A DNA stretch of 32,000 nt from Candidatus Saccharimonadota bacterium (GCA_041659445.1 JBAZYG010000002.1:60001-92000); one strand, 5' to 3'; positions 11,892 to 27,346 are shown, counted from the stretch's first letter. The notes: a model not told the origin generated them from the letters alone. Made by a program: numbers and translations.

Positions 11892-11892
11892 A

Positions 11893-12330
11893 ATGGAAGA
11901 ATTAGAAAAACTTAAACAAGAGAATTTTGAATTAAAAAAAGAAATAGAAAAATTAAAAAATTTATTAAATAATCGAGGGAAAACTCAAAAATCAGGAATG
12001 ATAAAAAAAGCAAGTTCAGGAAAAGTTATGTCAAAACCTGCTTTTGGATATAAAATAGAATTCGGAAAATTAATAAAAGATAGTGAAAACGCAAAAAAAG
12101 TTCAAGAAATATTCTCTGAATTTTTAATTAATGATATAAGTTTGAATAAATTATCTAAGAAATACAATTTTTCAGTTAATGGTTTGAAAAAAATTTTAAC
12201 TAATTTTACATACATTGGAAAAATAAAATTTGATAATTCAGTTCATGAAGGAACCCATGAGCCAATAATTTCATCAACAGATTTTAATCATGTTCAAGAT
12301 AAATTAGAAAAAATGCTTAAGAAGAATTGA
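11893..12330 (+). CDS. stand-alone 'Recombinase' domain protein (large-serine-recombinase DNA-binding domain without the catalytic resolvase domain)
   Basis: 145 aa with an N-terminal coiled coil. It then shows FGYK...AKKVQEIFSEF...SLNKLSKK...LKKILTNFTYIGK...HEPIISSTDFNHVQ, the conserved pattern of the Recombinase domain. The start is 1 nt after the xerA stop. Confidence 0.65.
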   Translation: MEELEKLKQENFELKKEIEKLKNLLNNRGKTQKSGMIKKASSGKVMSKPAFGYKIEFGKLIKDSENAKKVQEIFSEFLINDISLNKLSKKYNFSVNGLKKILTNFTYIGKIKFDNSVHEGTHEPIISSTDFNHVQDKLEKMLKKN

Positions 12331-12334
12331 TTAT

Positions 12335-12652
12335 TTACTCTCTTATTCTAAAGCCAAATCCACTTGTTTGATCTGTGCAGGGAACTCTTAACAAACTGAG
12401 GGATCTAGAATGATACTTCTTTTCAACTTTTTTAAAATCCTTTTCTGATATTAATTTATAGTTCTGTAGTTCTTTCAAGGAAATTCTTTTATGCTTTTTT
12501 TCTAAAATATTTTCCACAGAGATAATGTCTTCTGTAGTTTTTGCTTCCAGAGATATTTTTTGAAATTGTATAATTTCCCCTTCATAATAATTGTGTTGAA
12601 AATATTTTCCTTTAAGAGATTGTTCAAGTAATTCATACATTGTTTCTTCCAT
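12335..12652 (-). CDS. hypothetical protein (variable cassette ORF 1)
   Basis: 105 aa. Its 5' leader and 3' flank are duplicated around the neighbouring, unrelated ORF at 12847-13152. Confidence 0.5.
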   Translation of the reverse strand: MEETMYELLEQSLKGKYFQHNYYEGEIIQFQKISLEAKTTEDIISVENILEKKHKRISLKELQNYKLISEKDFKKVEKKYHSRSLSLLRVPCTDQTSGFGFRIRE

Positions 12653-12833
12653 AAAAAATTCATTAATTAATTCCTTTTAAAGATTATTGTTCTAAAAAAT
12701 AACCATTTCAGATTAAATGTTATATATACTGAAAAATAATAAACTTGAGTTGCCCATGATTGTGAAATATCTATCATTTCTCTAATCTTTTTTCCAGAAA
12801 TTAAAACCCCAAGCCAATTAATAATAAAGAAAA
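12644..12833. repeat. about 190-bp copy of 13144-13384 (leader plus 3' part of the membrane-protein gene), with a 50-bp internal deletion
   Basis: Aligned by eye: near-identical apart from a few substitutions and loss of 13218-13267. Positions 12717-12833 are a non-functional fragment of the 13203-13493 gene. Confidence 0.85.
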
Positions 12834-12846
12834 TGCTTAAGAAGAA

Positions 12847-13152
12847 TTAAAAGTCTTGAATAAAATTTAAGTCTGGAAATCTTTTAGATAAATTCTCATG
12901 GAAAATTTTTGATTCTTCTTGTGTTGGTAATCTCTCATCTTCGTCGGGTATTAAATCCTGACAAATTTTTATTTCCAAATTTTTATTCTCTTTTGAGAGT
13001 TTATTTAATTCAAAATCTAGGTGAAAATATTTTTCGTTTAAATTATTTGAAAGAAATCCACCACCGCCTGTTGTAGGAGGTTTAAAAAAATAATAAAAGT
13101 ATCTTTTTTCTGAAATTGACGCAAATAGCCTTAATTTATAATCTTCTTCCAT
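12847..13152 (-). CDS. hypothetical protein (variable cassette ORF 2)
   Basis: 101 aa with the same MEE start context and leader as 12335-12652, but an unrelated body. Confidence 0.5.
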   Translation of the reverse strand: MEEDYKLRLFASISEKRYFYYFFKPPTTGGGGFLSNNLNEKYFHLDFELNKLSKENKNLEIKICQDLIPDEDERLPTQEESKIFHENLSKRFPDLNFIQDF

Positions 13153-13202: not shown

Positions 13203-13493
13203 CTATTTTAGATTAAAGGCGTTGCTTTTCAAATCAGAAAATGGGAAAGGCCTATTGTTTGTTTTGAATGTTATATACACTGAAAAATAATAAACTTGAG
13301 TTGCCCATGATTGTGAAATATCTATCATTTCTCTAATCTTTTTTCCAGAAATTAAAACCCAAAGCCAATTAATAATAAAGAAAATTGCAACAAGATACAT
13401 CCAAACATAGAGAATTATTCCTGAAACAATTAAAACAACAATTCTCATTAATGCTTCTTTTCTTTCGAGTTCAACCTCTTTTTTTTCTTTCAT
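13203..13493 (-). CDS. small two-helix membrane protein
   Basis: I prefer the internal start MKEKKEVELERKEALMRIVVLIVSGIILYVWMYLVAIFFIINWLWVLISG, one nt after the rps9 stop. The track ORF (to 13592) would overlap rps9 out of frame. Confidence 0.55.
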   Translation of the reverse strand: MKEKKEVELERKEALMRIVVLIVSGIILYVWMYLVAIFFIINWLWVLISGKKIREMIDISQSWATQVYYFSVYITFKTNNRPFPFSDLKSNAFNLK

Positions 13494-13494
13494 T

Positions 13495-13905
13495 TTATCT
13501 ATAAGATGTTTGCCTCTTTGCTCTTGCTTTTGAATCTCCTGGTTTATAGGCTTCTTTTCTTCGAACATCTGCAACAAGAATATTTCTATCATAATCTAAA
13601 TATGTTTTTTCAAGCTCACGCGAATTTGAAAATTTTAAAATCCCTCTAGCTAAAGCTAATCTTGCAGCTTCTATTTGTCCTTTTTCTCCGCCACCATGAA
13701 CATTTATTTTTGCATTGAATTCTATTTTTCCTAAAATTTGTTCAGCGATTCTTATTGGTTCTGCAATCCTTAATCTGTTAAAAATATCAAATCCAAGATA
13801 ACTTTTATTATTGATTAAAACTTTTCCATTTCCTGGATAAATTGTTGCTTTTGCAACTGCAGTTTTTCTTTTTCCAGAACTATATACTTTATTTGTTTCT
13901 GTCAT
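13495..13905 (-). CDS. rps9: 30S ribosomal protein S9 (uS9)
   Basis: GKRKTAVAKA...VHGGGEKGQIEAARLALARGI...RRKEAYKPGDSKARAKRQTSYR. The start is taken at MTETNK, just after the L13 stop. Confidence 0.93.
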   Translation of the reverse strand: MTETNKVYSSGKRKTAVAKATIYPGNGKVLINNKSYLGFDIFNRLRIAEPIRIAEQILGKIEFNAKINVHGGGEKGQIEAARLALARGILKFSNSRELEKTYLDYDRNILVADVRRKEAYKPGDSKARAKRQTSYR

Positions 13906-14799: not shown

Positions 14800-14883
14800 T
14801 GTGGATGTTAGGATTCGAACCTAAGTAGGCACTAAGCCAACAGATTTTGAGTCTGTCCCGTTTGACCACTCCGGCACATCCAC
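14800..14883 (-). tRNA. tRNA-Leu (anticodon CAA), class II with long variable arm
   Basis: Minus strand GTGGATG-TG-CCGGAGTGGTCAAACGGG-ACAGA-CTCAAAA-TCTGT-TGGCTTAGTGCCTAC-TTAGG-TTCGAAT-CCTAA-CATCCAC-A. All stems pair and the 7-nt loop carries CAA. Confidence 0.92.
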
Positions 14884-15012: not shown

Positions 15013-15510
15013 ATGGAAAATAAAGGGTTTTTCAATAAAGAAATAGGGAATTTCACTTTTAAATCTCCAGAAATACCCAAAATAAGTGAAATACCTGAAA
15101 TTGCCCAAAATTCCATAAAAGACCCCCTTTTTTACGATTTAGGTAAAGAAAGAATAGAATCTCTTAAAAAAGCAATTTCAGAAATAAAAATTTTAATTAA
15201 AGAAAGAGAAAAGTTAAGTAAAGACACTTTTAACGAAGGTGAAAAACTTAAAACAGAAATAAATAATTTTATTCTTGAAAACGAAAATGCAAACATTGCA
15301 TTAAATTCTGTTTCTACAAATGAATTACTTAGAGAAAAAAACGAATTAAGGTCTAAAAAAATTACAATTTCTGAATCTCAATTAAAAGAAAAAATTGATT
15401 GCTGGAAAGACGTTGCAGTGCTTAAAAAAGAATTAAGAGAACTTGAAATAGAACTTTCAGAAAAAGAAAATAGGATAATTGCATTAAATAAAATTCTCGA
15501 ATCTAATTAA
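15013..15510 (+). CDS. coiled-coil protein, partner of the downstream ATPase
   Basis: 165 aa. The C-terminal two thirds are heptad-rich (ESLKKAISEIKILIKEREKL...LRELEIELSEKENRIIALNKILE). It ends 5 nt before the ATPase gene. Confidence 0.65.
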   Translation: MENKGFFNKEIGNFTFKSPEIPKISEIPEIAQNSIKDPLFYDLGKERIESLKKAISEIKILIKEREKLSKDTFNEGEKLKTEINNFILENENANIALNSVSTNELLREKNELRSKKITISESQLKEKIDCWKDVAVLKKELRELEIELSEKENRIIALNKILESN

Positions 15511-15515
15511 TAAAA

Positions 15516-17534
15516 ATGAAAAGACTTCTTAGTATAGAAGAGTTAAGCACAAAATTAAAACCTTTATTCGGAGAAAAAATTGATCAATTATATTTTAAAT
15601 ATTTAACTTCAAATTCTAACGAAGAAAAAATAGAAATTTTGCAATTATTGACGGCATTATATCAAAAAAATCTTTCAAATTTACTCGATACAAAAATTTT
15701 GTTAGAACCGCCTCCAAAAGAATTAGTTACAGGAGAATACACTCTTGGAAATGTAGTTTATAATGAAAAAGAACTATATCCCTTTAATTTAAGAGAGCAA
15801 GATTGGTCAAGACACATTTGTGTTACAGGTATGTCTGGTAGTGGAAAAACAAATTTAGCATTGAATATTCTTTCAGATTTTATAAAAAAATCAAAGCCAT
15901 TCTTAGTTTTTGATTGGAAAAAAAGTTTTCGACCGTTGGTAAATAAAGATCCTTCATTAATGATTTTTACAGTCGGAAACGAATCTGTAAATAATTTTTT
16001 CAAATTAAACATAAACCGACCACCAAAAGATGTTTCACCAAAAGAATGGATAAATGTTTTGTGTGATCTATTAACAGAAAGTTTTGCAGTTTCATTCGGA
16101 GTTCACAAAGTTTTATTAGAAACATTAGATGAAATTTTTGAAAAATGGGGAGTTTATTCTGGTTTTAATCATTATCCAAATTGGGAGCATGTTAAAAAAA
16201 TGCTTGAAATAAAAGCAAGAGAGGCAAAAAAAAGAGAATCTGCATGGTATGAAAGTGCTTTAAGAATTGCATCTGTTTTAACTTTTGGAAGTTTTGGAAA
16301 AGTTATAAACTACGACGGAAAAAAAAGTCTTTCAGTTGAAGATTTGTTTGATAAAAGAGTTATTCTTGAATTAAATTCTTTGGGAAATATTGAGAAAAAA
16401 TTCTTTTGTGAATATCTTTTAACTTATATTTACAAATTAAAAAAAGCAAATCAATTCAAAGATGAATTAAACTTTAATTATGCAATTTTAGTTGATGAAG
16501 CACACAATATTTTCTTGAAAAATAAAACAAATTTCTTATCTGAATCTGTTACAGACATGGTTTACAGAGAAATGAGGGAATATGGAATAAGTTTAATTTG
16601 TTTAGACCAGCACATTTCTAAAATAAGTGATACTGTTAAGGGAAATTCTGCTTGTCATATAGCATTTCAACAACAACTTCCTGAGGACATTTATGATATT
16701 AGTTCTTTAATGCAAATGTTTGACAGAAAAGAAATTTTTTCAAAAATTCCTGTTGGATATTCTATTGTGAAACTTGCTGAAAGATATAATTCCTCTTTTT
16801 TAATTAAAGTTCCGTTATTTGATTTTTCTGGTGCAGAAGTAGGTGATGAAAAAATAAAATCAAGAATGGATTTTAAATTACTTGAAAATGAAATTGAAGA
16901 ATCAGATAAAGAATTTAAAAAAGAAATAACTTTTCCTTCAATAAAAAATGCAATAAAACCCGGACTAACCTTGAAGAAATCAAAAAAAAGAATTATCTTA
17001 GATAAGGAAGATTTAGAAGTTCCTTTAGAAGTTCAAGATTTTAAGAGAAAAATTGAAAATATTAAAGAGGAATATGCTGGTTTAACTCCTGTTCAAAAAG
17101 AATTATTTTTATTTATTCAATCAAAATTAGATTCAGGACGTGAATTAAAAGATATTGAAAATTTGCTTGAGCAAGGGCTTTCAGAAAAACTTTATAGTTT
17201 TTCAGATGTATTAACTGCAATTAATTATGCAATGGAGCAAAGATTAAAACTTCCTTCAAAATCTTTAACTTTCCAAAATAAAAATAATTTAGAACTTGTT
17301 TCAAATCAATTAAAACATTCTTCTGAAAATTTACCTGACGATGAGAAAAAGTTTGTTGAATTTTTAAGAAAAAATCCAAACAATGAATTAAATACAACTT
17401 CAATATATTCTTCAATGGGTTTTTCAACAAGAAAAGGAAATGTTATTAAAAAAAGGTTAATTGAAAAAAATCTTATAAAAGTTCAAGAACAAAGGACAAC
17501 AAAAGGCTGGCAAAAATTCATAAGATTAGCTTAG
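15516..17534 (+). CDS. HerA/FtsK-superfamily P-loop ATPase (DUF87-like) fused to a C-terminal winged-helix domain
   Basis: 672 aa with Walker A ICVTGMSGSGKTNLALNIL, Walker B YAILVDEAHNIF, then LICLDQH. The C-terminus FVEFLRKNPNNELNTTSIYSSMGFSTRKGNVIKKRLIEKNLIKVQE is wHTH-like. Confidence 0.8.
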   Translation: MKRLLSIEELSTKLKPLFGEKIDQLYFKYLTSNSNEEKIEILQLLTALYQKNLSNLLDTKILLEPPPKELVTGEYTLGNVVYNEKELYPFNLREQDWSRHICVTGMSGSGKTNLALNILSDFIKKSKPFLVFDWKKSFRPLVNKDPSLMIFTVGNESVNNFFKLNINRPPKDVSPKEWINVLCDLLTESFAVSFGVHKVLLETLDEIFEKWGVYSGFNHYPNWEHVKKMLEIKAREAKKRESAWYESALRIASVLTFGSFGKVINYDGKKSLSVEDLFDKRVILELNSLGNIEKKFFCEYLLTYIYKLKKANQFKDELNFNYAILVDEAHNIFLKNKTNFLSESVTDMVYREMREYGISLICLDQHISKISDTVKGNSACHIAFQQQLPEDIYDISSLMQMFDRKEIFSKIPVGYSIVKLAERYNSSFLIKVPLFDFSGAEVGDEKIKSRMDFKLLENEIEESDKEFKKEITFPSIKNAIKPGLTLKKSKKRIILDKEDLEVPLEVQDFKRKIENIKEEYAGLTPVQKELFLFIQSKLDSGRELKDIENLLEQGLSEKLYSFSDVLTAINYAMEQRLKLPSKSLTFQNKNNLELVSNQLKHSSENLPDDEKKFVEFLRKNPNNELNTTSIYSSMGFSTRKGNVIKKRLIEKNLIKVQEQRTTKGWQKFIRLA

Positions 17535-17788
17535 CTTATTTTTGTTTATAGATTATGTTACTTTTATGCAATAGTTACAAATAGAAACATTTATAAATTG
17601 ATTATTCCCTATAAAATAGAAAAAATCATATTCAAAAAACTAAACAAAAAAAACATATTTCAAAAATTACAAAAGAAACAAAAAACCGAGAATAAAACAC
17701 AGAATAAATAAGATAAATAAAATTAAATTTTATCTTGCATTTATTCAAAAATTTTATTCAAAGTTAATAAATTTCTTAAGTAAAAAAA

Positions 17789-17995
17789 TGAAATACCTTT
17801 TTCAAAATCGTTTTAGGTTTTGAAAAACAAGTGAAAAACCGCAAAAGGCTTTTCATGAGAATTATTCTTCATAGAAATATCAACTAGAACTTAAGTGAAA
17901 TACCTCAATTTCTAAGATATTTCATCAAATAAATTTCAAAAAAAATTCAAAAAATAATATGAAATACCCTAATTCAATTAAAAAAAGGTATTTCA
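17789..17995. repeat. iteron-like TGAAAWACC repeats in a 500-bp noncoding region
   Basis: TGAAATACC at 17789-17797, 17896-17904 and 17960-17968. Inverted GGTATTTCA at 17987-17995. Variant GTGAAAAACC at 17831-17840. Confidence 0.8.
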
Positions 17996-18036
17996 CACAA
18001 AATAATTTTTAATATTAACAATTTAAAACTTTAATC

Positions 18037-18234
18037 ATGGAAACAGCAACTTTTTTTCTTTTAATCGGAGCGATAGTTTTCATTTTTTTAGGAGCAATTT
18101 TACTTGTCGCTTCTTCAAAAAAAGAAACCTACCATTTTCCCTGGCTGTCTGTAGCATGCCTAATCGTGGCTTTTGCATTTTGTTTAGCCGCCCTCATCGT
18201 GCAAAACTCGGCCGGCGTTCATCCAGCGAACTAA
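18037..18234 (+). CDS. small two-TM membrane protein
   Basis: 65 aa with two hydrophobic helices (FFLLIGAIVFIFLGAILLVA; SVACLIVAFAFCLAALIV). Confidence 0.6.
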   Translation: METATFFLLIGAIVFIFLGAILLVASSKKETYHFPWLSVACLIVAFAFCLAALIVQNSAGVHPAN

Positions 18235-18265
18235 CTTGCAGGAATTTTAACATCTTTTTAAAACA

Positions 18266-18421
18266 ATGGAACAAATAACTTTAATCATACTCGGAGCAGG
18301 ACTTTCCTGTTTAGGAGTATTAAATTTATTTGATTACAAACATAGAGTAAACAGATCTTCCATTCTTGGAATGGGATGGGGTTTAGCTATGTTTATTTTA
18401 GGGATTTGTATCCTTAAATAA
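18266..18421 (+). CDS. small two-TM membrane protein (51 aa)
   Basis: Hand-translated MEQITLIILGAGLSCLGVLNLFDYKHRVNRSSILGMGWGLAMFILGICILK. It has the same TTTAAAACA-ATGGAA start context as other island genes and is below the track cutoff. Confidence 0.45.
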   Translation: MEQITLIILGAGLSCLGVLNLFDYKHRVNRSSILGMGWGLAMFILGICILK

Positions 18422-18673
18422 TCAAATAGAAATCTGCTAATTTTGGATTAGCCGAGTTGATGCATATCTTGGGAACAGAAGCATCAAATTCTTTTTTATC
18501 TTTTCTTGCCTGCACTTCGTCGATGGATAAGAAGTTCGATTCTTCTTGCAGGCACAATTCAGTGTTAAAAAATTCAAAAACAATTTCGACAAAGCGGAAG
18601 GCGGTTTTGTCAAATTAATTAAAAACAAACCCTTAAAAAAAAGTGCCATAAGGAGGCGCTAGCCGAATGTATC

Positions 18674-19300
18674 ATGAAAAATTTAAATGGAAAAAGTTTT
18701 GATGAACCTGAGGAAGAAAGACTGGTAAATCCCAAAGTTTATCAGGCAAAACCCGAACGGGTTTTTACATATCCCGAAGGGACTTTTGGGAGGTTGTGTG
18801 AAGAACAACACTGCAATCCTGATATTCTAATCTCTTCAGAGACAAAAATATCTCTATTTTCAAAAGTAGGTAATCCGGGGTATCGAATGTATACCTACAA
18901 AATTGAAAACAATGAAACAGACGCGTTGAGCGTCTACGAACCATGGGCGAGAATTGAGCTCAAAAAAGATTTTTTCCTTGAAAGGAAAAATCATGCCAAG
19001 GAATGTGGCCGGATTGCAAAAGAGCTTGGACTTCCGTTTGAATTAATTCTGGCTGTCGGCATTGAGCCAGAAAAACGCCAGGCTCTTCTCCAGTTGAAAG
19101 AAAAAGCCGAATGGTTCAGGGAACTGATCCACGAGCTGAAGGAATGCGGAATTAATAAGAGGAAAATGTCTATTCTCGATCTCATCGGGAGAGAGACATA
19201 CGACTCTTTGGATGTCGAAGGTATGGGGCAAAAAAATTCCTCGACAATTGCCCAATTTCTCACAAGGGGAATAACCATCGAGGGTTATTCTAAAAAATAA
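18674..19300 (+). CDS. hypothetical soluble protein
   Basis: 208 aa with island-type composition and no signal peptide; no motif recognised. Confidence 0.65.
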   Translation: MKNLNGKSFDEPEEERLVNPKVYQAKPERVFTYPEGTFGRLCEEQHCNPDILISSETKISLFSKVGNPGYRMYTYKIENNETDALSVYEPWARIELKKDFFLERKNHAKECGRIAKELGLPFELILAVGIEPEKRQALLQLKEKAEWFRELIHELKECGINKRKMSILDLIGRETYDSLDVEGMGQKNSSTIAQFLTRGITIEGYSKK

Positions 19301-19387
19301 TAATTAACTCGGCAGAAATAAGGCACTGCAATGAGACAAAATATTAACTATTAATTGGATAGGGACATGCTATCCATTTTATTTTAA

Positions 19388-19459
19388 TTCATTATAGCTC
19401 AGTTGGTAGAGCATCTGATTTTATTCAGAAGGTCATAGGTTCGAATCCTATTAATGGAA
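19388..19459 (+). tRNA. tRNA-like gene with bacterial-type D-arm and an aberrant 6-nt anticodon loop (Lys-UUU-like, or pseudo-tRNA)
   Basis: TTCATTA-TA-GCTC-AGTTGGTA-GAGC-A-TCTGA-TTTTAT-TCAGA-AGGTC-ATAGG-TTCGAAT-CCTAT-TAATGGA-A. All four stems pair, but the total is 72 nt because the anticodon loop is one nt short. Confidence 0.6.
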
Positions 19460-19460
19460 C

Positions 19461-19910
19461 AATGTTCTCTTTTGAACATTTTAGCTTCATCCCTTGAAGC
19501 TTGCTCATACATGAGCATTTCGTTTCTCAATTTCTTTGAGAGACAAACATTTTTCTTTTTTTAATCTGATTATCATGTTTTTTTAATCAGGTTTCATTCG
19601 CTGAAATTTCCTTCAGCAAACATTTTCCAAAAACTCTTTAGATTTCAGAGCCAAAACAAAATCAATTTGTTATTTTATTTATTTTCAGTTATTATTTATT
19701 TTTAATTATTTTTCAAATTAATTACTTTATTAGTATTTAGTTAAGTTCTTTTTATTTCAATTATTTTCTTATCATTATTTTATTTTTCTTTTCGTCATTT
19801 CGTTCTGAAGTGACAAACATTTTTCTTAGTTTTCTTTTTAGTTGCTCTTTTTCATTAATTTATTTTGAGCAACTTTCTTCGGCTAATTCCAGCCAAACAT
19901 TTTCCCTTTT
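19461..19910 (+). repeat. array of short hairpins, four to five followed by a conserved AAACATTTT(T)C tail
   Basis: Stems TCTCAA/TTGAGA (tail at 19545), GCTGAA/TTCAGC (tail at 19618), GTCATTTC/GAAGTGAC (tail at 19814) and GGCT/AGCC (tail at 19895), plus AATGTTC/GAACATT at 19461-19480. More hairpins at 19483-19501, 19502-19517, 19566-19590 and 19842-19873. Confidence 0.8.
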
Positions 19911-19966
19911 AATTTTTCTTCTGAATTTTTTTTAAACAAATATTAACAATTTAATTTCAAAACGTC

Positions 19967-20806
19967 ATGAAAAATTTAATTTCAAAAAATTGTTCATCGA
20001 TTCTGCCGTTCTTTCTGATTGCATTAATTGCTATCTTTGCATTTTGCTGTGCAAGACCAGTGAATGCTCAATCCACGTGGGATTGTGAAAGGTATTCAGA
20101 TCCCTTTTCATTCAACGTCAAACAAGTCAATAGTTCAATTTGGATTTTGAGTTATTCGATTAAGAATGATTCAATTATGACATTCAACCATGCCGGCGTG
20201 ACCTCTTTGGAGTTGACTTCAAATGATATAATTCTTGATTCCATTGAGGTTGTCTTTGTGTCAAAATTTCCTTTTTCAAGTACACAAATTCAAGCCAGTC
20301 TTAAAAAAGTTTATTTTGAAAATTCCCCACAATTAGTGAGGCAAGATGTTATTTTCAAAACTTTTCCGAAGTGGCCAGACAAGAAAATAGAAACGTTTTA
20401 CATTTACTGCAAAAAAGAAGGAAATAAAGTAACTTTCTATGATGAATTGGTATTTACTAAAACCAAATCAAATTGGCTTTGGCCGACAGCGTGCGTTATA
20501 GTTTTAATTGGGTTTTTTTTAATTGATGCAATTCAAAAGATTGGGGAAAGAAGAAATTATCTCAAAAATGAAAGCAGGGTAGAAAAGTTTTTTTCAGGAT
20601 TTTTTGCAAATACTTTTTGCAGTTTTGGAGAAGTAATTTTCATCCTTATATTAATTATATTATTTCTTTTTAAGATAATGTCCCTAGTAGAAGATTATTC
20701 TTTAGATAAAATTGGAATAATCTTTTATCTGTCTCTGATTTTCTTGTTCTTTCTCGGAAAATTTATTCTTTACAAAATCTTTTTCCGAGGAATTAAAAAA
20801 TACTAA
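19967..20806 (+). CDS. secreted-domain protein with a C-terminal multi-TM region
   Basis: 279 aa with a signal peptide ending VNA|Q, a soluble domain of about 140 aa, then 3-4 hydrophobic helices. Confidence 0.7.
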   Translation: MKNLISKNCSSILPFFLIALIAIFAFCCARPVNAQSTWDCERYSDPFSFNVKQVNSSIWILSYSIKNDSIMTFNHAGVTSLELTSNDIILDSIEVVFVSKFPFSSTQIQASLKKVYFENSPQLVRQDVIFKTFPKWPDKKIETFYIYCKKEGNKVTFYDELVFTKTKSNWLWPTACVIVLIGFFLIDAIQKIGERRNYLKNESRVEKFFSGFFANTFCSFGEVIFILILIILFLFKIMSLVEDYSLDKIGIIFYLSLIFLFFLGKFILYKIFFRGIKKY

Positions 20807-20813
20807 CTTCTTT

Positions 20814-20890
20814 TAAGGGCAAGTTAAAGAAAAGGATTTTCTACGTTTTGCCTTTTTAGATTAGAGATAGCAATCTAATACTTGCCCTTA
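20814..20890 (+). ncRNA. 77-nt Y-shaped structured element (11-bp closing stem plus two internal hairpins), function unknown; may act as a terminator
   Basis: TAAGGGCAAGT (20814-20824) pairs with ACTTGCCCTTA (20880-20890). Inner hairpins are AAAAGG..CCTTTT and TAGATT..AATCTA. It is followed by TTTTC. Confidence 0.4.
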
Positions 20891-20942
20891 TTTTCAAAAC
20901 TTTTTTTCAAAATTAATTCACCAATTCAAAATTTTAAACGCC

Positions 20943-21632
20943 ATGAAAAATTTAATTTCTTTACTTAAAAAAGTAGGAGTCTTTAAAGCAATCGGAATTT
21001 CTGCTTTAATTGGCTTTATTTTGGTAATAATTTTTCTTGTGCTATTACCAAAAAATTCAAATTCACAAGAAATTTCTTCTCCTGAAAAATGGAAGATTAA
21101 TTCCATAAATTTTGTCGCTGGCGAAACACCCTTGACAAAAGGAATTACTTTAAGCCCAGTTTTTTCAAAAGGTAAATCAACAATAATGATAGATCTAAAC
21201 CAGGAATTAGGAGAACTTATGTTTTTTTATTCTCCTAAAAAATGGTGTTCCATCGGGCCATCAGTAGGGTTCTTCAAGAATACATCTTGGGTAGGACCAA
21301 TTGCTTCATTAAACATTTTTAATGGACATGTTACAACTCTTAACTGGGTGGGATGGAGTTTTGGAAACCCTGAAGCAATCGGAGGAGGAACTACAAATTC
21401 CAACGTTGATTTCTTGTTTTCCTTTCACCAGGTTTCTGTCAATTACTTCGGTGTAGAAGGTTATTATATTCTGCAACACTACCAAAAAAATTTTCCCGGG
21501 CACATTGTAGGGGTTAAGTATACTTTTGCCCTCGGAGATAATTTTTCCCTTTTCGGAGGTTATGCTTATATGTTCCGAGCAGATAAATCCCTTTGGTCCG
21601 CAGGTTTCATTTTGTTATTTCCAGAAAAATAA
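20943..21632 (+). CDS. secreted beta-rich protein, putative beta-barrel (paralog of 21636-22316)
   Basis: 229 aa with a signal/anchor ending SNS|Q and alternating hydrophobic strands. It shares the YSPKKWxSIGPSVG block with the next gene (YSPKEWITFGLSAG). Confidence 0.65.
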   Translation: MKNLISLLKKVGVFKAIGISALIGFILVIIFLVLLPKNSNSQEISSPEKWKINSINFVAGETPLTKGITLSPVFSKGKSTIMIDLNQELGELMFFYSPKKWCSIGPSVGFFKNTSWVGPIASLNIFNGHVTTLNWVGWSFGNPEAIGGGTTNSNVDFLFSFHQVSVNYFGVEGYYILQHYQKNFPGHIVGVKYTFALGDNFSLFGGYAYMFRADKSLWSAGFILLFPEK

Positions 21633-21635
21633 ACC

Positions 21636-22316
21636 ATGAAAGCAAATTTCAAATTAAAAGTTCCCGGTCCATTCACAATTGTAGAATGGATTTTCATCAT
21701 GATGATTGTATTGGCAATCGGAACTTGTTCCAGAACCAATGCTCAAACTTCTCAAAATTTCTTCAAGATAAATGTTCATGTTCAAGTTGTTTCAGACGAG
21801 CAATCTGAAACAAGTAAAAAGTTCAGAACATTTTACCAAGAGGAATTTTATTTTAATCATAAATTTTCTTCGAATTTAGCTTTCACAAGTTTTGCAACAG
21901 TTAGAAATGATCGGGGTGAAATTTATTCTGGATTAGAGTACTCACCAAAAGAATGGATAACTTTTGGTTTGAGTGCTGGTCTAGATGTTGCAAAAGAAGC
22001 TGGTTCATCGTCAGCAACTTTGAGAACTGCAACATCTGTTTCCCTCAAGCCAGTAGAACAATTTGAATTCAAAGGAATTTTTGAATATAGCTCTGAGGAT
22101 TACTGGTTTTTGATTGAGCCAAAATACAATGGAAAGAAATTTTCATTGAGTTTGATTGCCCGTCGATATCATGGTGTCGGGTTTTCATTTTATTGGCCGA
22201 TTGCCAAGGGTAATCTGACTTTATGGTACTATGCGGGATATCTTCAAGGAAAATTCCTCGGAGGTGATGATAACCCACGAGCCTCTTCAGCCTTAGGGTT
22301 GAAAGTTAATTTTTAA
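21636..22316 (+). CDS. outer-membrane-type beta-barrel-like protein
   Basis: 226 aa with a signal peptide ending TNA|Q and amphipathic beta-strand periodicity. The C-terminus is ALGLKVNF, with terminal Phe and alternating hydrophobics (bacterial OMP beta-signal). Confidence 0.65.
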   Translation: MKANFKLKVPGPFTIVEWIFIMMIVLAIGTCSRTNAQTSQNFFKINVHVQVVSDEQSETSKKFRTFYQEEFYFNHKFSSNLAFTSFATVRNDRGEIYSGLEYSPKEWITFGLSAGLDVAKEAGSSSATLRTATSVSLKPVEQFEFKGIFEYSSEDYWFLIEPKYNGKKFSLSLIARRYHGVGFSFYWPIAKGNLTLWYYAGYLQGKFLGGDDNPRASSALGLKVNF

Positions 22317-22347
22317 TTTACTTAATACTAATTTAATTTTTAAAACA

Positions 22348-22842
22348 ATGGAAAATTTTCTTGAAAACAAATCAGTTGCAAAAATCTGCTTGATTCTTGC
22401 AATTATCATCATGGTGATTCTGTCTCTCTCGCCAATAGATGCAAAGTCTCAAGTGATTGTTAATGACGCTGATTCAAGTGTTGTCCTTGACATTCAGAGC
22501 ACCTCTGGCGGTATTCTCATTTCCCGGATGACAGAAGCTCAACGTGACAGCATCTCAGAACCAGCGAATGGTTTGCTGATTTATCAAACAACCGTTCCAA
22601 TGGGTTTTTATTTTTGGGACGGAGTCCAGTGGAACAGGCTCGTAAGTGAAAATGCAGAAGGTATCATACAATATGGTGAGGCAGAATTTTCTGGAGAGCC
22701 TTCCCAGGAATTATTTGAAAGTGTTTTTGGTATCAGACAATTTCATTTTCATTTCACTCTGCTAAGCACAAATCAGAATAAAGTCTTCACTGGCGCCTAC
22801 ATTACTGGGCATGGGTTTTTCTATGAAAAACTCAAGCAATAA
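22348..22842 (+). CDS. secreted protein with an STSGGILISRMT..QRD.I..P..GLLIYQT....W motif
   Basis: 164 aa with a signal peptide ending AKS|Q. From memory, the motif resembles one common in Bacteroidota secreted hypothetical proteins; this was not verified. Confidence 0.6.
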   Translation: MENFLENKSVAKICLILAIIIMVILSLSPIDAKSQVIVNDADSSVVLDIQSTSGGILISRMTEAQRDSISEPANGLLIYQTTVPMGFYFWDGVQWNRLVSENAEGIIQYGEAEFSGEPSQELFESVFGIRQFHFHFTLLSTNQNKVFTGAYITGHGFFYEKLKQ

Positions 22843-22946
22843 CAACTACAACCCTTAATTGGGATTCTGCATTTCTAAATTTCTTTGGCATTATTAAAGA
22901 AATTAAATTCTCAAAATGTTTATTAATCATCAAATTTCAAAATGTC

Positions 22947-23093
22947 ATGGCAAAAAAGAATTTTGCAACCAGAATCATCTTAGAAAATGATGGAGTTTCT
23001 AAAGATGAAGAAATTCCTCTCAAAGCCAAAATGAAAAATATACATAAAACCTACCATCCACTAAAAGGGATGAAAGGAAAAAAAGCAGAATAA
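22947..23093 (+). CDS. small basic protein (48 aa)
   Basis: Hand-translated MAKKNFATRIILENDGVSKDEEIPLKAKMKNIHKTYHPLKGMKGKKAE. It is preceded by the island leader AAATTTCAAAATGTC-ATG and followed by a 10-bp-stem hairpin. Confidence 0.45.
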   Translation: MAKKNFATRIILENDGVSKDEEIPLKAKMKNIHKTYHPLKGMKGKKAE

Positions 23094-23236
23094 AACCCAT
23101 CAGCAACGCAAAAGGCAGGAACTTTTAATCTAAATTAACTAATGGTTTTTGATGAATCTCTATCTTCCCCTGCCTTTTTAATTTGAAAACAATTTATGTC
23201 AAAATATTAATTCAAAACTTTTAATTTCAAAACGTC

Positions 23237-23746
23237 ATGAAAACAAAAGAGAACAATTTTCTGTATTGGGGAGTTGTGATTGTTTTTTTAGTAACGATCA
23301 TATCCCTGGTCTTAATGTTTGTTTCTATAATTTCAAAAGCAAATAAAAAAGATTTAGAAACAAAATCTTCCAACACTTCAAACGTTGTTTTTGTGGAGAA
23401 TTCTGATTCTTCAATAATAATAAACGCAGAAGTTATCATCTCAGAATTCAACGGAATTTCTGATTCCGTTGATTACCAAACCAGCGAGGATTTTATAGAT
23501 ATTTCCTTAGCAATAGAACAATATTATCCTTGCTCAGATACTACTCTCTGTGACAGCCTGAGACAAAATTTTATTGACGAGCTTAGAAAAATTTCAGATG
23601 TTAATGTCCTTGAAATTTTTCTCGAGACAATCAATAGGGTTTTCATCAACACAGACTTTTCAAAAACCGATGACATTAAATCATTAATTACTCAGAGAGT
23701 TAATGATTTATACGCCCTTGAATCATATCAAGAACTCAAAAAATAA
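23237..23746 (+). CDS. N-terminally anchored extracytoplasmic protein
   Basis: 169 aa with one TM (LYWGVVIVFLVTIISLVLMFVSII), and the leader TTAATTTCAAAACGTC-ATG, nearly identical to that of 19967. Confidence 0.65.
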   Translation: MKTKENNFLYWGVVIVFLVTIISLVLMFVSIISKANKKDLETKSSNTSNVVFVENSDSSIIINAEVIISEFNGISDSVDYQTSEDFIDISLAIEQYYPCSDTTLCDSLRQNFIDELRKISDVNVLEIFLETINRVFINTDFSKTDDIKSLITQRVNDLYALESYQELKK

Positions 23747-23785
23747 TTTTCAAAACTTTTTTCAAAACAATTTAAATTAAATGTC

Positions 23786-24178
23786 ATGGAAAAATTTGGT
23801 ATTTATTTAGTATGGATGCTGATACTTCTTGTATTTGCGTTCTTAAATCGCACCATCCTGTATTATGGAGCAATCTGTCCAGCCGTCAGTGGAAGACCTG
23901 TTGCTGACTTAAGACCTTGGAGAATATTCTCTTGGGTTTTCGGAGGAATTTCCTTTATTGTTTACAATTTTCTTTTGTTAGTTCCAATCGACAGCGAGTT
24001 TAAAGATTTCTTCAAACCAGTGTGCCTGATTTTTGCTGGAACCTGTGTTCTGGCATTAATTCTTTTTGCCCTGCTAAGTTCTGATGCAATTTTGATGACT
24101 ATCCGTCGGAGATTTAATCTCGTTGGAATTGCGTTAGGAATTGTCTTGTGCCTAACGCTTTCATTCTTCCTGTTATAA
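23786..24178 (+). CDS. four-TM integral membrane protein
   Basis: 130 aa with four hydrophobic segments. Confidence 0.65.
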   Translation: MEKFGIYLVWMLILLVFAFLNRTILYYGAICPAVSGRPVADLRPWRIFSWVFGGISFIVYNFLLLVPIDSEFKDFFKPVCLIFAGTCVLALILFALLSSDAILMTIRRRFNLVGIALGIVLCLTLSFFLL

Positions 24179-24184
24179 CATTCA

Positions 24185-24224
24185 TTGCATTATGTATCTC
24201 TTGAAGATTATAATGCATTTCTTT
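24185..24224 (+). terminator. hairpin plus T-run (intrinsic-terminator-like)
   Basis: TGCATTAT (24185-24192) pairs with ATAATGCA (24209-24216), followed by TTTCTTTG. Confidence 0.55.
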
Positions 24225-24300
24225 GATTTCAATTACTCAATTTAATTTGAGACAAAATATTTTTCACAAATTTCTATTTATTAATTCAAAAATTTTTACC

Positions 24301-25152
24301 ATGAAAAAAATCGTTTTTTTATTCGGAATTTTCTTCCTTTTTTTAGGAAGTATCTTTTCCCAAGACATCATCTATAAAAGAGATGGGTCCAGAATTCAAT
24401 CAGTGGTTTTGAAAATCACTGAGACGTCGATAGAATATCAATATTTCAATCAACCCGACGGGCCTGTGCGAGTACTCTCTCTAAAAGATGTGTATATGGT
24501 CAGGTACAACGACGGAACAGAAGAACAATTCACATCTGAAGTTCCTGAAGTTCAACCTGAACCTGAGGCTGTTTCCACCACATCTATTATGCCGACGACA
24601 ACAATCAGTCAACCTGTTTCAACAGAACCAATTCAGCCACCAGTTACAACCAAACAAAAATCATCTGGAAAATTCTCCCTCAATGCTGGAGGGTTTCTCC
24701 ATATGTATTACAACGAGGAAATGTCCTCGACATTTGGCACCATGCCTTTGTTCGGCTTGGGTCTTGGCGTGGACATGGATAATATATTTTTCACGCTGAG
24801 ATATAATACTGGCTCTGTGAAGTATGATGAGGATAACTGGACATTAAAGCATTCCCAGTTGGACTTGCTGTTCGATTTAAAGTGGTATAAATCACAGGGA
24901 AGCAAAGCCCAAGTATATTCTGGAATTGGGCTTTCTCTTAATACATTGAAAGATGAAGGTCCAGACAACGAGAAAGAAAAAGGAACAGGTGCAGGGGTTT
25001 TGCTCGAGCTTGGCTTTGATATCTTACTTGCAAATAATTTATATTTGTTTGTCACGGCAACATCTGTGATAGGGAATGTAAATATTTACGAAGAGAAAGT
25101 TAACATCAGCGGAGAACGACTCGGAGTCGGGCTCAAGGTTAACTTTGATTAA
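24301..25152 (+). CDS. outer-membrane-type beta-barrel protein with an N-terminal small domain and a Pro/Thr-rich linker
   Basis: Start taken at MKKIVFLFGIFFLFLGSIFS|QD. It has an N-domain IIYKRDGSRIQSVVLKITETSIEYQYFNQPDGPVRVLSLKDVYMVRYNDGTEEQF, a PEPEAVSTTSIMPTTT linker, about 8 amphipathic strands, and ends GVGLKVNFD. Confidence 0.7.
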   Translation: MKKIVFLFGIFFLFLGSIFSQDIIYKRDGSRIQSVVLKITETSIEYQYFNQPDGPVRVLSLKDVYMVRYNDGTEEQFTSEVPEVQPEPEAVSTTSIMPTTTISQPVSTEPIQPPVTTKQKSSGKFSLNAGGFLHMYYNEEMSSTFGTMPLFGLGLGVDMDNIFFTLRYNTGSVKYDEDNWTLKHSQLDLLFDLKWYKSQGSKAQVYSGIGLSLNTLKDEGPDNEKEKGTGAGVLLELGFDILLANNLYLFVTATSVIGNVNIYEEKVNISGERLGVGLKVNFD

Positions 25153-25269
25153 CTTTTAAATTTTCAAAAAATCCTTAATCGAAATTCTAAAATTAGTTTG
25201 AAGAAAAGAGCATAACTGTGAGTGTATGCTTTTAAATTTTCAAAATGTCTAATAACAAATTTTTTAACA

Positions 25270-26055
25270 ATGGAAACAAAAACAAAAAAAATCACATGGT
25301 GGGACGTAGCATTTGTCGCCATCGTGGTGACTTTGGTGGGGTTTGTACTTTGGGTTTGTCTCACACCGCCGCCCAACAAAATAACCGACGAGAGAGCCCA
25401 ACAAACCCAAGATTCACTCTCAAACCAGTATCGATTTGAGTGTAACTTAATTTCTTTCAACTCAGAACCAGTTCCGGCCTTTTTTGAATGGTTGGAATTG
25501 CAAGGAGAGGGATACACTCCAGTAGGTAATAATCCGGTTCTGGTACCCATACGTTCAGGACAGGAAATGATTTATTCGTATGAAGGTAAAATGTATAAAG
25601 GCATTTTACCAAACACAACCTACTTCATGTGGGAGCCAGCTTCAGGTATGGAATTCAAATGTCTCTCCAGAAATGGAGCAATTATATCCATAACTCCTTA
25701 TGAAACAGGTGAGCCAGTCCAGTATTTTATCCGTCGATACAATGAATTCTGGAGTTTCGAGGAATTAAAAATTCGTAATTATCGTTATTCATTGAACATC
25801 ACCGCAATTTATCCTTGGGGAGAAATTCTCATCGATAACTACGAAGATCTGTTGATGAATTCTTCTGTAAAAAGGTTTCGCTCCTGGGGACCTGCTTATG
25901 AAGTTCAGGTCGGGCAAGCTGAGTTAAATGGGTGGGAAGATTTTTTCCTCGTCAGTCAGGATGGGAAAGCATGGCTTACCCGCGAACAAGAGCAACGACG
26001 ACGTGAAAGTCAGTTCATACATAACGTCGGACCTGGAGGTTTTATACTTCCATAA
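25270..26055 (+). CDS. N-terminally anchored extracytoplasmic protein
   Basis: Start taken at METKTKKITWWDVAFVAIVVTLVGFVLWVCL (single TM); the remaining roughly 230 aa are soluble with no recognised motif. Confidence 0.65.
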   Translation: METKTKKITWWDVAFVAIVVTLVGFVLWVCLTPPPNKITDERAQQTQDSLSNQYRFECNLISFNSEPVPAFFEWLELQGEGYTPVGNNPVLVPIRSGQEMIYSYEGKMYKGILPNTTYFMWEPASGMEFKCLSRNGAIISITPYETGEPVQYFIRRYNEFWSFEELKIRNYRYSLNITAIYPWGEILIDNYEDLLMNSSVKRFRSWGPAYEVQVGQAELNGWEDFFLVSQDGKAWLTREQEQRRRESQFIHNVGPGGFILP

Positions 26056-26246
26056 TTCCCCCAATTATTAAACCCAAAATGTGAAGTTGACAAGAATGTG
26101 ACTTGATGTGCACATTTTTTCTTTTGAACAAATTATTAATTTAAAAAAGAAAGGAGGAAAAAATAATTAAGAGTGTTGGTATGAACATAACCTTATTTTT
26201 AAGGTGTATGTAAAATTATAATTATTCACCTAAATTTTAAATCATC

Positions 26247-26813
26247 ATGAAAAAGATTCTTTTTATTTTCTTTGGACTACTCTTTGCGAGTAGTCTTTTT
26301 GCAATCGAACCGACAGTACCTGCTACCAGCACCGGCGAGAATTCCCCGACGATTTTCACTGCTGAGCAGAAAGCTGAAGCCATCAACGCTTTCGTGACCA
26401 GTGGAAGCATGGAAATGGCTATTCCCGGATTGCCTGATGCACCGCCGCCGGTGAGGTATGAGAACATCTTAGGTTTTGAAGTAACCGCATGTAACTCCAT
26501 GCACATTGCGTATGGGGTGACCGGGGGTAATGAAGAACCTGCTTTTTGGGTTTACCCATGGGGAGGAACCGTTAGAGTAGAAAAAACAGTTTGGCCCCAA
26601 GCAGGACAGCAAGTTTGGGTAAAAGTATTATCCTGTTCAAGCCCACAGCAAGGATATTGCAATCTACATTTAGACCGAAGGGTTTGGTATCCAGATCAAG
26701 GTCCTATGGGCGAGCCCTTATTGTGCTTGTATGGATGGATATGGTGTTATACCGCGGGAAGTATCCTACCTCAAACAGGATACACCGAGGCCGGTTATTG
26801 TGTGACTGAATAG
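26247..26813 (+). CDS. secreted Cys/Trp-rich protein
   Basis: 188 aa with signal peptide MKKILFIFFGLLFASSLFA|IE. It is the G+C-richest gene in the window and its C-terminal half contains 7 Cys. Confidence 0.65.
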   Translation: MKKILFIFFGLLFASSLFAIEPTVPATSTGENSPTIFTAEQKAEAINAFVTSGSMEMAIPGLPDAPPPVRYENILGFEVTACNSMHIAYGVTGGNEEPAFWVYPWGGTVRVEKTVWPQAGQQVWVKVLSCSSPQQGYCNLHLDRRVWYPDQGPMGEPLLCLYGWIWCYTAGSILPQTGYTEAGYCVTE

Positions 26814-26828
26814 CCTATCCTGCTCTTC

Positions 26829-26870
26829 AAGGACTTTATTTCTCTCGAGGATTAAAGTCCTTTTCTTTTG
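26829..26870 (+). terminator. hairpin plus T-run (intrinsic-terminator-like)
   Basis: AAGGACTTTA (26829-26838) pairs with TAAAGTCCTT (26853-26862), followed by TTCTTTTG. Confidence 0.6.
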
Positions 26871-26900
26871 ATTTTAATTTCCTTTAAGGAATCAAAATAT

Positions 26901-27001
26901 AAGGCGTTGGTCAGAAGCAATTCCTGAAGTAATTGCACAAGTTGCGAAAAATCAAATTTTTGTGTGAGAATTCATCCAACCAAGGGAAAATCCAACGCCT
27001 T
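26901..27001 (+). ncRNA. about 100-nt element closed by a 10-bp stem (possible structured RNA), function unknown
   Basis: AAGGCGTTGG (26901-26910) pairs with CCAACGCCTT (26992-27001). It has an internal GCAATT..AATTGC hairpin and lies at the right edge of the G+C-rich island. Confidence 0.3.
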
Positions 27002-27044
27002 CTTTTAATATAAGTCTTTTAACAACTAAAAAAGGGGGTTTATT

Positions 27045-27239
27045 ATGTTTTATCATGTGTGGGTATCTGTGTTTTTAATTGTATTCGGAGCATTAGTGTT
27101 ATCTAGACAGATATCTTTTCCAATTGAAAAACGTTCAACTTCAAGATTATTTTGGGGTTTTGCTTATTTTGGAATAGGCATAAGTCTTTTAACAACTATT
27201 GTTTTATTGAAATACATTAAAGATATTCCTTGGTTTTAA
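27045..27239 (+). CDS. small two-TM membrane protein
   Basis: 64 aa with two hydrophobic helices. It contains the second copy of a 19-bp direct repeat (27180-27198); the first copy is at 27010-27028, just upstream. Confidence 0.5.
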   Translation: MFYHVWVSVFLIVFGALVLSRQISFPIEKRSTSRLFWGFAYFGIGISLLTTIVLLKYIKDIPWF

Positions 27240-27346
27240 ACTAATTAAAAAAATGCTTATTTAATTTTTCAGAATTTTATTTAAGCATTTTTTTTGCAAA
27301 ACAGAACTGCTAAAATATAGCAGTAGTATTTAATTAAAAAAAAGAA

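Follow-up and report, generated by a model that had tools for sequence, protein, structure and literature searches.

A tRNA-shaped gene with a six-nucleotide anticodon loop and its relatives at a hypervariable locus of DPANN archaea

The closest described counterparts of the gene considered here are the t-elements, non-canonical tRNA-like structures at which cleavage by RNase P and RNase Z makes mRNA ends in plant mitochondria (PMC1920247). When tRNA-like elements were engineered onto either side of an RNA in the archaeon Haloferax, these enzymes processed them in vivo too (PMC4946936). Few features of natural tRNAs are as rare as an anticodon loop of non-standard size (PMC5009743). Here we describe a tRNA-like gene with a 6-nucleotide (nt) anticodon loop at positions 19388-19459(+) of a 32,000-nt stretch of DNA (JBAZYG010000002.1:60001-92000 of GCA_041659445.1, filed as Candidatus Saccharimonadota bacterium), which as a whole we call the window. 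The gene is no single oddity. Genes of tRNA shape in which the anticodon arm has been shortened, mutated or lost recur in connection with one conserved, fast-evolving locus of DPANN archaea, and this gene is one of them. Neither the locus nor recurring tRNA-like genes with short loops were found described in the literature, and phrases built on "6-nt anticodon loop" found no match.

Read on the plus strand, the 5' half of 19388-19459 is TTCATTA-TA-GCTC-AGTTGGTA-GAGC-A-TCTGA-TTTTAT-TCAGA, and after the anticodon arm the 3' half runs AGGTC-ATAGG-TTCGAAT-CCTAT-TAATGGA-A. This is a full cloverleaf, found as such by Rfam, ARAGORN, our own covariance model and the minimum-energy fold, and present in three assemblies. 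The 7-bp acceptor stem and the D, anticodon and T arms are all there, all four stems are paired with a single U.G (at 2-71), and the tertiary set U8 A14 G18 G19 A21 G53 U54 U55 C56 A58 C61 is complete. The acceptor stem opens with U1-A72 and U2.G71, the discriminator is A73, and CCA is not encoded, the CAAT that follows being trailer. The Rfam tRNA model (RF00005) gives 64.6 bits (gathering score 29; E = 4.7e-12) in an alignment with one base deleted within the anticodon loop, our covariance model gives 82.3 bits, and ARAGORN returns "tRNA-??? anticodon (tt)", i.e., a two-base anticodon in a 6-nt loop. At 35%, the G+C content (GC) is the lowest among all tRNA hits, against a host tRNA mean of 53%. 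An earlier note, made from the sequence alone, had described four canonical stems around a 6-nt loop, as Rfam, ARAGORN and folding all confirm, and a T-G wobble in an A/T-rich acceptor stem, with which the U.G at 2-71 and the low GC agree.

The departure from a normal tRNA lies in the anticodon arm, TCTGA-TTTTAT-TCAGA (19414-19429(+)), a 5-bp stem and 6-nt loop that together make 16 nt instead of the usual 17. We read the loop as U32-U33-[UU]-A37-U38; a canonical loop, with 7 nt, U33, a purine at 37 and a three-base anticodon, is not what this gene has. When 19388-19459 is folded alone, the minimum-energy structure (-17.1 kcal/mol) is the cloverleaf with the 5-bp anticodon stem and 6-nt loop; an alternative 4-bp stem with an 8-nt loop is 2.2 kcal/mol worse, and the A31-U39 pair has a probability of 0.95. 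The cloverleaf persists within 320 nt of context, where the fold has z = -7.0 against shuffles. One-base gap aside, core positions 8-62 show 93% identity to Staphylococcus tRNA-Lys(UUU), in a comparison that lay outside archaeal tRNA-Lys, and phage tRNAs show generic similarity only. Only one further tRNA occurs in the window, an ordinary tRNA-Leu(CAA) of the host at 14800-14883(-), and Rfam at a permissive threshold found no further RNA family in 17500-20100. The D-arm had been called bacterial rather than archaeal. However, when it is set beside host DPANN tRNAs of the homologous loci, these prove to carry near-identical D-arms (e.g., TAGCTCAATTTGGTAGAGC, TAGCTCAATGGCAGAGC), so the feature is not diagnostic. 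The wider label of a "bacterial/phage-type" gene is thus unestablished, given also that the proteins of the surrounding variable region have no PHROGs match and that the locus is absent from IMG/VR.

Could the missing loop base simply have been lost in assembly? The three assemblies were found via contigs encoding the neighbouring 208-amino-acid (aa) protein (ENA ERZ27249449, 68 kb; Logan SRR6484324, 12.1 kb; Logan SRR18595301, 5.1 kb). They come from different read sets, and 19388-19459 is base-for-base the same in each, with the four-T run present in all three. The gene would then be an ordinary tRNA-Lys(UUU) that lost one T of a homopolymer, as the loop is a T-run and one added T would give a canonical 7-nt UUUUUAU with anticodon UUU. 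Against this stands the exact agreement of three assemblies that differ in both reads and assembler. Loops of 5 to 6 nt also occur in unrelated loci in sequence that is not homopolymeric (CTACAA, CTAAAA, CTTCAA, CTTAA), and position 38 and the AT-rich acceptor stem would stay atypical even with the added T. The agreement of the assemblies and the short loops elsewhere without T-runs therefore make a homopolymer assembly error very unlikely.

Further evidence comes from about 150 homologous loci, here given L numbers. These were anchored on the gene for an ATPase that lies upstream of the tRNA-like gene, with 80 loci from a one-genome-per-species set and 57 from metagenomes, and were scanned by ARAGORN and by a covariance model built on the variable-region hits. 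Downstream of the ATPase gene, ~15 of some 90 homologous loci contain same-strand tRNA-like elements. A non-canonical anticodon arm was seen in 14/18 of the ARAGORN-called variable-region elements, compared to 11/71 of the host tRNAs of the same loci (odds ratio 19, p = 1e-6), and the 11 host cases mostly reflect one weak stem pair or an intron. Loops of 6 nt occur in the window (TTTTAT), in L010 (TTTCAA), in L020 (CTTCAA), in two L086 genes (CTACAA) and in two L073 genes (CTAAAA), and all five distinct sequences fit Y-U-[NN]-A-W. There are 5-nt loops in L086a (ATTAA) and L106 (CTTAA) and an 8-nt loop in L030. Position 33 is altered in L089a (G33), L060 (C33) and L074c (A33), and a pyrimidine stands at 37 in L024 and L073. 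The anticodon arm is wholly absent from L078 and L104, and only the acceptor stem and T arm are left in L043 and in a second element of the window, at 18508-18554.

The remainder of these genes is in good order. Universal positions deviate in 6/198 cells, the acceptor, D and T stems have mismatches in 6/288 pairs, and 96% of the stem cells are paired. Two loci carry pairs of elements that share an arm and little else: L086b/c (13024-13094 and 13429-13498) are the same at 16/16 positions of the anticodon arm and 60% identical in the remainder, and L089a/b (8500-8572 and 9187-9258) are the same at 16/17 positions and 57% identical in the remainder. Identities of 57-60% outside the arm equal the background between unrelated tRNA-likes. 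No ortholog of the window element was found in the close relatives L007, L011, L069, L079 and L160-L162. Separately, L091 has two tRNA-likes just downstream of its ATPase gene (7159-7274 and 7349-7475(+)), each with a 50-nt insertion in the anticodon loop; these insertions could be archaeal tRNA introns or another way to disable the arm.

The second element of the window is a mini tRNA-like element (18508-18554(+)) that consists of an acceptor stem and T arm, without a D or anticodon arm. It has a 7-bp acceptor stem (GCCTGCA/TGCAGGC), the T arm AGAAG-TTCGATT-CTTCT and a discriminator A. The covariance model scores it at 20.4 bits (E = 2.6e-4 in 9.9 kb with filters off), and its minimum free energy is -16.1, compared to -9.4 +/- 2.4 in shuffles, of which 6/500 were as low. 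A CAAT trailer follows it as it follows the full element, and a hairpin with a T-tract precedes both; a CAAT or CAAA trailer right after the discriminator is common to the window's clade. Between the two elements lies a 208-aa orphan open reading frame (ORF) at 18674-19300(+); it is 119 nt from the mini element on its 5' side and 87 nt from the full tRNA-like gene on its 3' side. Its only database match is itself, in a Candidatus Pacearchaeota metagenome-assembled genome. Single small genes are bracketed by elements in this way in L073, L074, L086, L089 and the window. Every element of the class shares its strand with the cassette genes, many lie 6-26 nt past the upstream stop codon, and 15/29 are 32-67 nt ahead of the next ATG.

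We interpret 19388-19459 as a transcribed, non-decoding tRNA-like RNA that would act through its acceptor/T-arm half, by analogy with t-elements, and we put the probability of this reading at about 0.4. Taken together, the loop-specific damage, the intact bodies and the clean arm-less and mini derivatives suggest that the tRNA shape is kept and that decoding is not. The members form a graded series that retains the top half throughout, from 5-, 6- and 8-nt loops through arm-less forms to forms with the acceptor stem and T arm only. The acceptor/T-arm half is the part of a tRNA recognised by RNase P, tRNase Z and the CCA-adding enzyme. In the proposed scheme, the RNA would adopt the cloverleaf, RNase P would cut at U1, and tRNase Z would cut after A73, ahead of the conserved CAAT trailer. 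Cleavage would then either release a stable small RNA or set the 3' end of an upstream message and the 5' end of a downstream one. Normal triplet decoding would not be expected of a 6-nt loop. The tRNA body, chiefly the "top half" of acceptor stem and T arm, would be maintained, leaving the anticodon arm free to shrink, mutate or vanish. Transcription, cleavage and an effect on neighbouring genes are the parts of this t-element-like scheme that we infer. The earlier note had offered four options (a decaying tRNA, a remnant of an integration target, a non-canonical decoder and a tRNA-like structural element), and the last is the best supported of them.

Several observations weigh against the t-element-like interpretation. 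The window genes each appear to have their own promoter-like and terminator-like signals, and a terminator-like hairpin with a T-tract stands immediately upstream of the tRNA-like gene, so that a need for polycistronic processing is not evident in the window. The gene is separated from its neighbours by 87 nt on the side of the preceding stop codon and by 507 nt before the following ATG, and to judge from the sequence its co-transcription with them is doubtful. Most homologous loci have no member of the class, nor do the closest relatives, so it is not essential to the locus. In addition, the within-locus pairs L086b/c and L089a/b keep their arm, which a function of the top half only would not predict, and the detection of elements was biased toward intact bodies.

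Of the other explanations, a functionless relic deserves the most attention, although we regard it as doubtful. It would be a tRNA-Lys(UUU)-type gene on horizontally acquired or mobile DNA, recently inactivated by the loss of one U in U33-U36. The near match of the core (positions 8-62) to canonical tRNA-Lys(UUU), at 93% identity bar the one-base gap, is what this would predict, and each 6-nt loop can be derived from a canonical one by one deletion at 33 or 34, mostly in a slippage-prone U-run. The setting also suits it: a GC-elevated region with orphan or bacterial-looking cargo (an OMP beta-barrel here, FliS in L086), a patchy presence with close relatives that have no ortholog, and AT-rich stems in a gene of 35% GC. 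However, neutral decay would spread damage beyond the anticodon arm, whereas nearly every member of the class has its first and only lesion within that arm, ~10% of the gene, and an intact body. The idea of a decaying tRNA is weakened accordingly. The L086 copies, 60% identical elsewhere and with compensated stems, have the same 6-nt-loop arm, which means that the short loop persisted through much divergence, and derivatives that are cleanly arm-less or mini, their acceptor stems still paired, do not have the look of random decay. We judge it unlikely that the elements are instead recombination sites, in which the anticodon arm, an inverted repeat with a 5-8 bp spacer, would be a tyrosine recombinase core marking cassette boundaries, with the nearby XerA or an element-borne integrase as the candidate enzymes. 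Among the places where integrases that target tRNA genes cross over, the anticodon loop is a known one, and a spacer of 6-8 bp is usual for a tyrosine recombinase. In L074, a 46-nt tRNA 3' half (14812-14857 and 15582-15627), together with the trailer TTTTCA, stands in direct repeat on either side of one 216-aa ORF; it starts at the anticodon stem, and the 5' half at the left copy does not pair, as in a hybrid att site. Elements within a locus are the same in the arm and different elsewhere, they are co-oriented around single small genes in the five loci named above, and XerA is encoded ~3 kb upstream in 34/57 loci and beside the variable region in L075. The window itself speaks otherwise. It has no second copy of the arm, even at 3 mismatches, and no partial tRNA-like copy, there being only a 15-nt T-arm identity with the host tRNA-Leu. 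There is no integrase or recombinase among the island ORFs, the nearest XerA (11058-11891) being outside the array; integron attC cores are absent; and the GC borders at ~18030 and ~26950 do not match the position of the element. The option of an integration-target remnant thus finds neither partner repeat nor integrase in the window, although the related locus L074 does have such a repeat. Furthermore, elements without an anticodon arm cannot work in this way, and the pairing of acceptor stems, like the conservation of tertiary nucleotides, suggests that selection acts on the RNA.

A working tRNA with a two-base anticodon, still charged, seems to us quite unlikely. It might read doublets and cause -1 frameshifting, open A31-U39 to present an 8-nt loop, or donate its amino acid outside ordinary translation. 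The gene retains positions 35-36, A37 and the discriminator, its body is fully intact, and the shared Y-U-[NN]-A-W pattern of all five distinct 6-nt loops, as well as the arm kept between diverged copies, counts in its favour. Two-base anticodons combine with discriminators in what we take to be fitting identities: UU with A73 for Lys, AC with A73 for Val, AA with A73 for Phe, and UC with G73 or A73 for Asp or Glu. A possible promoter box of its own and T-runs downstream are consistent with such a gene, and there is structural support for doublet decoding by a tRNA (PMC12202706). In contrast, other members have no U33, a pyrimidine at 37, 5-nt loops or no arm, and so many arms in the class are unfit to decode that decoding cannot be what its members have in common. 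Read in the standard code, the island ORFs are uninterrupted and show no evident need for frameshifting or stop suppression, though no systematic frameshift search was made, and the island yielded no gene for an aminoacyl-tRNA-using transferase. Loops of non-standard size are very rare in nature, and none of the known cases is known to shift frame (PMC5009743). A fuller version of this explanation, which we consider improbable, would have natural two-base-anticodon tRNAs that lost nucleotide 33 or 34, kept Y32/U33, N35-N36, A37 and the discriminator, and are charged by the cognate synthetases outside triplet decoding, either to read doublets with programmed -1 frameshifting or to supply activated amino acids for a non-ribosomal process linked to the surface-protein array that lies beside the Ced-like ATPase. 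The cognate synthetases would be those for Lys in the window and for Val, Phe and Glu/Asp elsewhere.

Around the full tRNA-like gene, the sequence holds several candidate expression signals. A TATTAAC box at 19342-19348(+), 46 nt upstream of the tRNA-like 5' end, is a possible archaeal TATA-like promoter; two island ORFs, at 18037 and 19967, have the same box 24-26 nt ahead of their ATG, and it shows no enrichment in the whole window (9 found compared to 7.8 expected). A hairpin, TGGATAG-N7-CTATCCA followed by TTTTATTTTA, was picked up by the terminator scan and by folding at 19356-19386(+), where it abuts the 5' end of the tRNA-like gene. With this hairpin and T-tract just before it and the TATTAAC box, the tRNA-like gene may be a separate small transcription unit. 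Four to six hairpins follow downstream (19461-19620(+)), of which two are terminator-like (19502-19517 and 19522-19544). A terminator-like module, consisting of a hairpin ending in GAGAC or GTGAC and then AAACATTTTTCTT, is repeated at 19539-19562 and 19809-19832(+), within the 500-nt AT-rich non-coding stretch after the tRNA-like gene. A conserved AT-rich motif ending in AATTTCAAAACGTC stands directly before island ATGs (18010-18036, 19941-19974, 20928-20950, 22921-22954, 23211-23244 and 26232-26254), with a TATTAA-like box ~25 nt upstream; on sequence, the combination looks like archaeal promoters for leaderless mRNAs.

The host is a Pacearchaeota (DPANN) archaeon. The genes flanking the variable region are archaeal, with the minus-strand order S13-S4-S11-RpoD, island, tRNA-Leu-L18e-L13-S9, and GC rises from ~25% in host DNA to 30-48% at 18.0-27.0 kb. 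The GC-elevated part is a hypervariable array of genes for small membrane and signal-peptide proteins, all on one strand (18037-26813(+)), delimited by GC, ORFs and synteny, with a hairpin and T-run after each gene and an AT-rich promoter-like motif before each ATG. The anchor of the locus is a 672-aa HerA/FtsK-superfamily ATPase (15516-17534(+)), assigned from DUF87/HerA and Zot matches and conserved at 57-70% identity across >800 DPANN proteins. Among named relatives the closest is CedD, the DNA-translocating ATPase of the archaeal Ced system, at 60 bits, far under the family cutoff, and the HerA and TraD matches are weaker than this. Together with a 165-aa coiled-coil protein gene it forms a pair (15013-17534(+)) that is kept in 56/57 loci. 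Relatives show the same order of L18e, tRNA-Leu, a ~160-aa coiled-coil protein, the ATPase, 5-9 kb of same-strand orphan genes and RpoD, and their orphan genes encode signal peptides or membrane segments. From this conservation the ATPase is a host gene and not island cargo. Because the ATPase is conserved and relatives have the same synteny, the "island" is a conserved hypervariable locus and no one-off insertion. One candidate, a mobile unit of ATPase plus island integrated in tRNA-Leu, was rejected, since the ATPase is syntenic across DPANN and a displaced tRNA-Leu half is absent.

The variable region exceeds its flanks in GC in 65/74 loci. A ~200-aa secreted family recurs in the variable regions of 11 loci, including the window (20943-21632), and an OMP-beta-barrel-like family includes window 24301-25152. 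In L086, the first variable gene (12133-12459) is a clear bacterial-type FliS (E = 1.4e-31) in a segment of 45-48% GC, compared to 33% in its host. The island proteins gave no meaningful match in PHROGs, PADLOC or NCBIfam, and the PHROGs match of the ATPase is limited to the Walker motif region. Homology searches with a 164-aa island protein and the 208-aa neighbour returned self or one remote match only. An exhaustive HMMER search with the OMP-like protein gave thousands of matches to its N-terminal domain, the closest being unnamed metagenome proteins, and no donor lineage can be assigned from them. Neither the ATPase nor the tRNA-like arm was found on any IMG/VR contig, and an exact-pattern scan of viral contigs and one genome per species found no copy of the window anticodon arm. 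The L086 arm CCTCACTACAATGAGG gave 10 matches in IMG/VR, none inside a tRNA-like structure, and these were set aside as chance. PHROGs, searched with the island proteins, and IMG/VR likewise gave no viral hallmark genes for the window locus, and a viral origin of the tRNA-like gene is unsupported.

The AT-rich spacer after the ATPase gene carries four exact TGAAATACC/GGTATTTCA motifs (17789-17995, no strand assigned), which we regard as a conserved cis element. The motif (G)TGAAATACC / GGTATTTCA has a density of 2.76 per kb in the 700 nt after the ATPase and 0.076 per kb elsewhere, a 36-fold difference, and 53/87 loci have at least 2 copies after the ATPase. There are 3-6 repeats per spacer (L010 2820-2900, L020 11930-12170, L086 11960-12090), with a further occurrence in the window at 15069-15095. 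These may be binding sites, an origin or a transfer site. An archaeal XerA gene and a 145-aa serine-recombinase "Recombinase"-like fragment form another conserved pair (window 11058-12330(+)), placed ~3 kb upstream of the ATPase in 34/57 loci and immediately downstream of it in L075 (8960-10286). An integron was considered and rejected: there are zero R''(RYYYAAC)/R'(GTTRRRY) core pairs on both strands of 17535-27340, and the 277-aa recombinase passes the XerA equivalog (253 bits, cutoff 220) and falls under the integron-integrase cutoffs (211 compared to 265). Between this XerA and the array lie ribosomal protein genes, tRNA-Leu and the ATPase.

Other repeats and breaks were noted at the edges of the locus. 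An exact 19-bp direct repeat, ATAAGTCTTTTAACAACTA, with a chance expectation of none, occurs at 27010-27028 and 27180-27198(+); the first copy is at the island's right GC border, the second within a 64-aa membrane ORF (27045-27239), and a third copy at the left island border is absent. A 10-bp inverted repeat, AAGGCGTTGG ... CCAACGCCTT (26901-27001(+)), surrounds a 100-nt structured segment (z = -2.3) and lies precisely where the GC-rich region ends on the right. Each of two independent Logan contigs begins at 14852, in the anticodon region of the host tRNA-Leu; one of the two, L002, ends at 26954, and L005 of the same run starts at 26927. A k-mer shared with another tRNA-Leu gene (14852) and population variation (26927-26954) are possible causes of these breaks. 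A 122-bp segment is present twice at 97.5% identity (12713-12834 and 13264-13385), close to a pair of short minus-strand ORFs that lie between the XerA and S9 genes.

What we rate as new is the finding of tRNA-derived structural elements in a new setting and with a characteristic 16-nt arm; the kind itself is known. If the elements are processing signals, the t-element principle, so far one of organelles and haloarchaea, would reach into the accessory genome of symbiotic archaea of ultra-small size, and the elements would offer a handle on the expression of a hypervariable locus. More would follow, for the capture of gene cassettes or for decoding, from a role as recombination cores or as tRNAs with two-base anticodons. 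The locus is in itself a candidate host-interaction or DNA-uptake region, with its Ced/HerA-like ATPase, 36-fold enriched motif and GC-elevated secreted-protein cassettes that include bacterial-type genes.

How does the locus compare with known systems? Known frameshift suppressors mostly have enlarged 8-nt loops, and the loop of the doublet-decoding tRNA-Ser3 is normal. The window element resembles frameshift suppressors and doublet decoders in that loop length is altered in an otherwise normal tRNA, natural cases of which are very rare (PMC5009743), and the reading of doublets by a tRNA is structurally possible (PMC12202706). It differs from them in that no frameshift-requiring gene was seen among the uninterrupted island ORFs, which were not systematically searched for frameshifts. 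With the att sites of integrative elements and with integron arrays, archaeal ones included (PMC9668308), the locus shares co-oriented variable orphan cassettes and a XerA-family recombinase nearby, and the related locus L074 adds a half-tRNA direct repeat that starts from the anticodon stem. In contrast, the window has no attC cores, partner repeat or integrase, and its recombinase fits the housekeeping XerA model. The phage and mobile tRNAs that evade anticodon nucleases (eLife 2023, PMC10264068) are likewise genes of accessory regions with changes concentrated in the anticodon loop. As we read that paper, however, their changes are substitutions in functional 7-nt loops, and loop size and position 33 are apparently not discussed there, whereas the loops described here change length, lose U33 or vanish.

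Compared to canonical tRNA-Lys(UUU), the window element has the same cloverleaf, D-arm, variable loop, T-arm, A73 and U-rich loop. It differs in a loop of 6 nt instead of 7, in an unrelated, AT-rich acceptor stem with U1-A72 and U2.G71, and in its place in a variable accessory region away from host tRNA genes. Its differences from t-elements are of another sort. The window element, known here from sequence alone, scores highly as an entire cloverleaf and is short only in its loop, and an anticodon arm that is conserved within a locus is no trait of t-elements. The setting is also different, a DPANN hypervariable surface-protein array whose genes seemingly have their own promoters and terminators. 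Even so, elements of both kinds are tRNA-shaped, non-canonical cloverleafs with the conserved GGTTCRANYCC T-loop motif (PMC1920247, PMC4946936). Both lie on the strand of protein genes and, in many of the window's relatives as in t-elements, close to gene ends, both have minimal forms made of an acceptor stem and T arm, and the function of t-elements is independent of the anticodon, as we propose for the genes described here.

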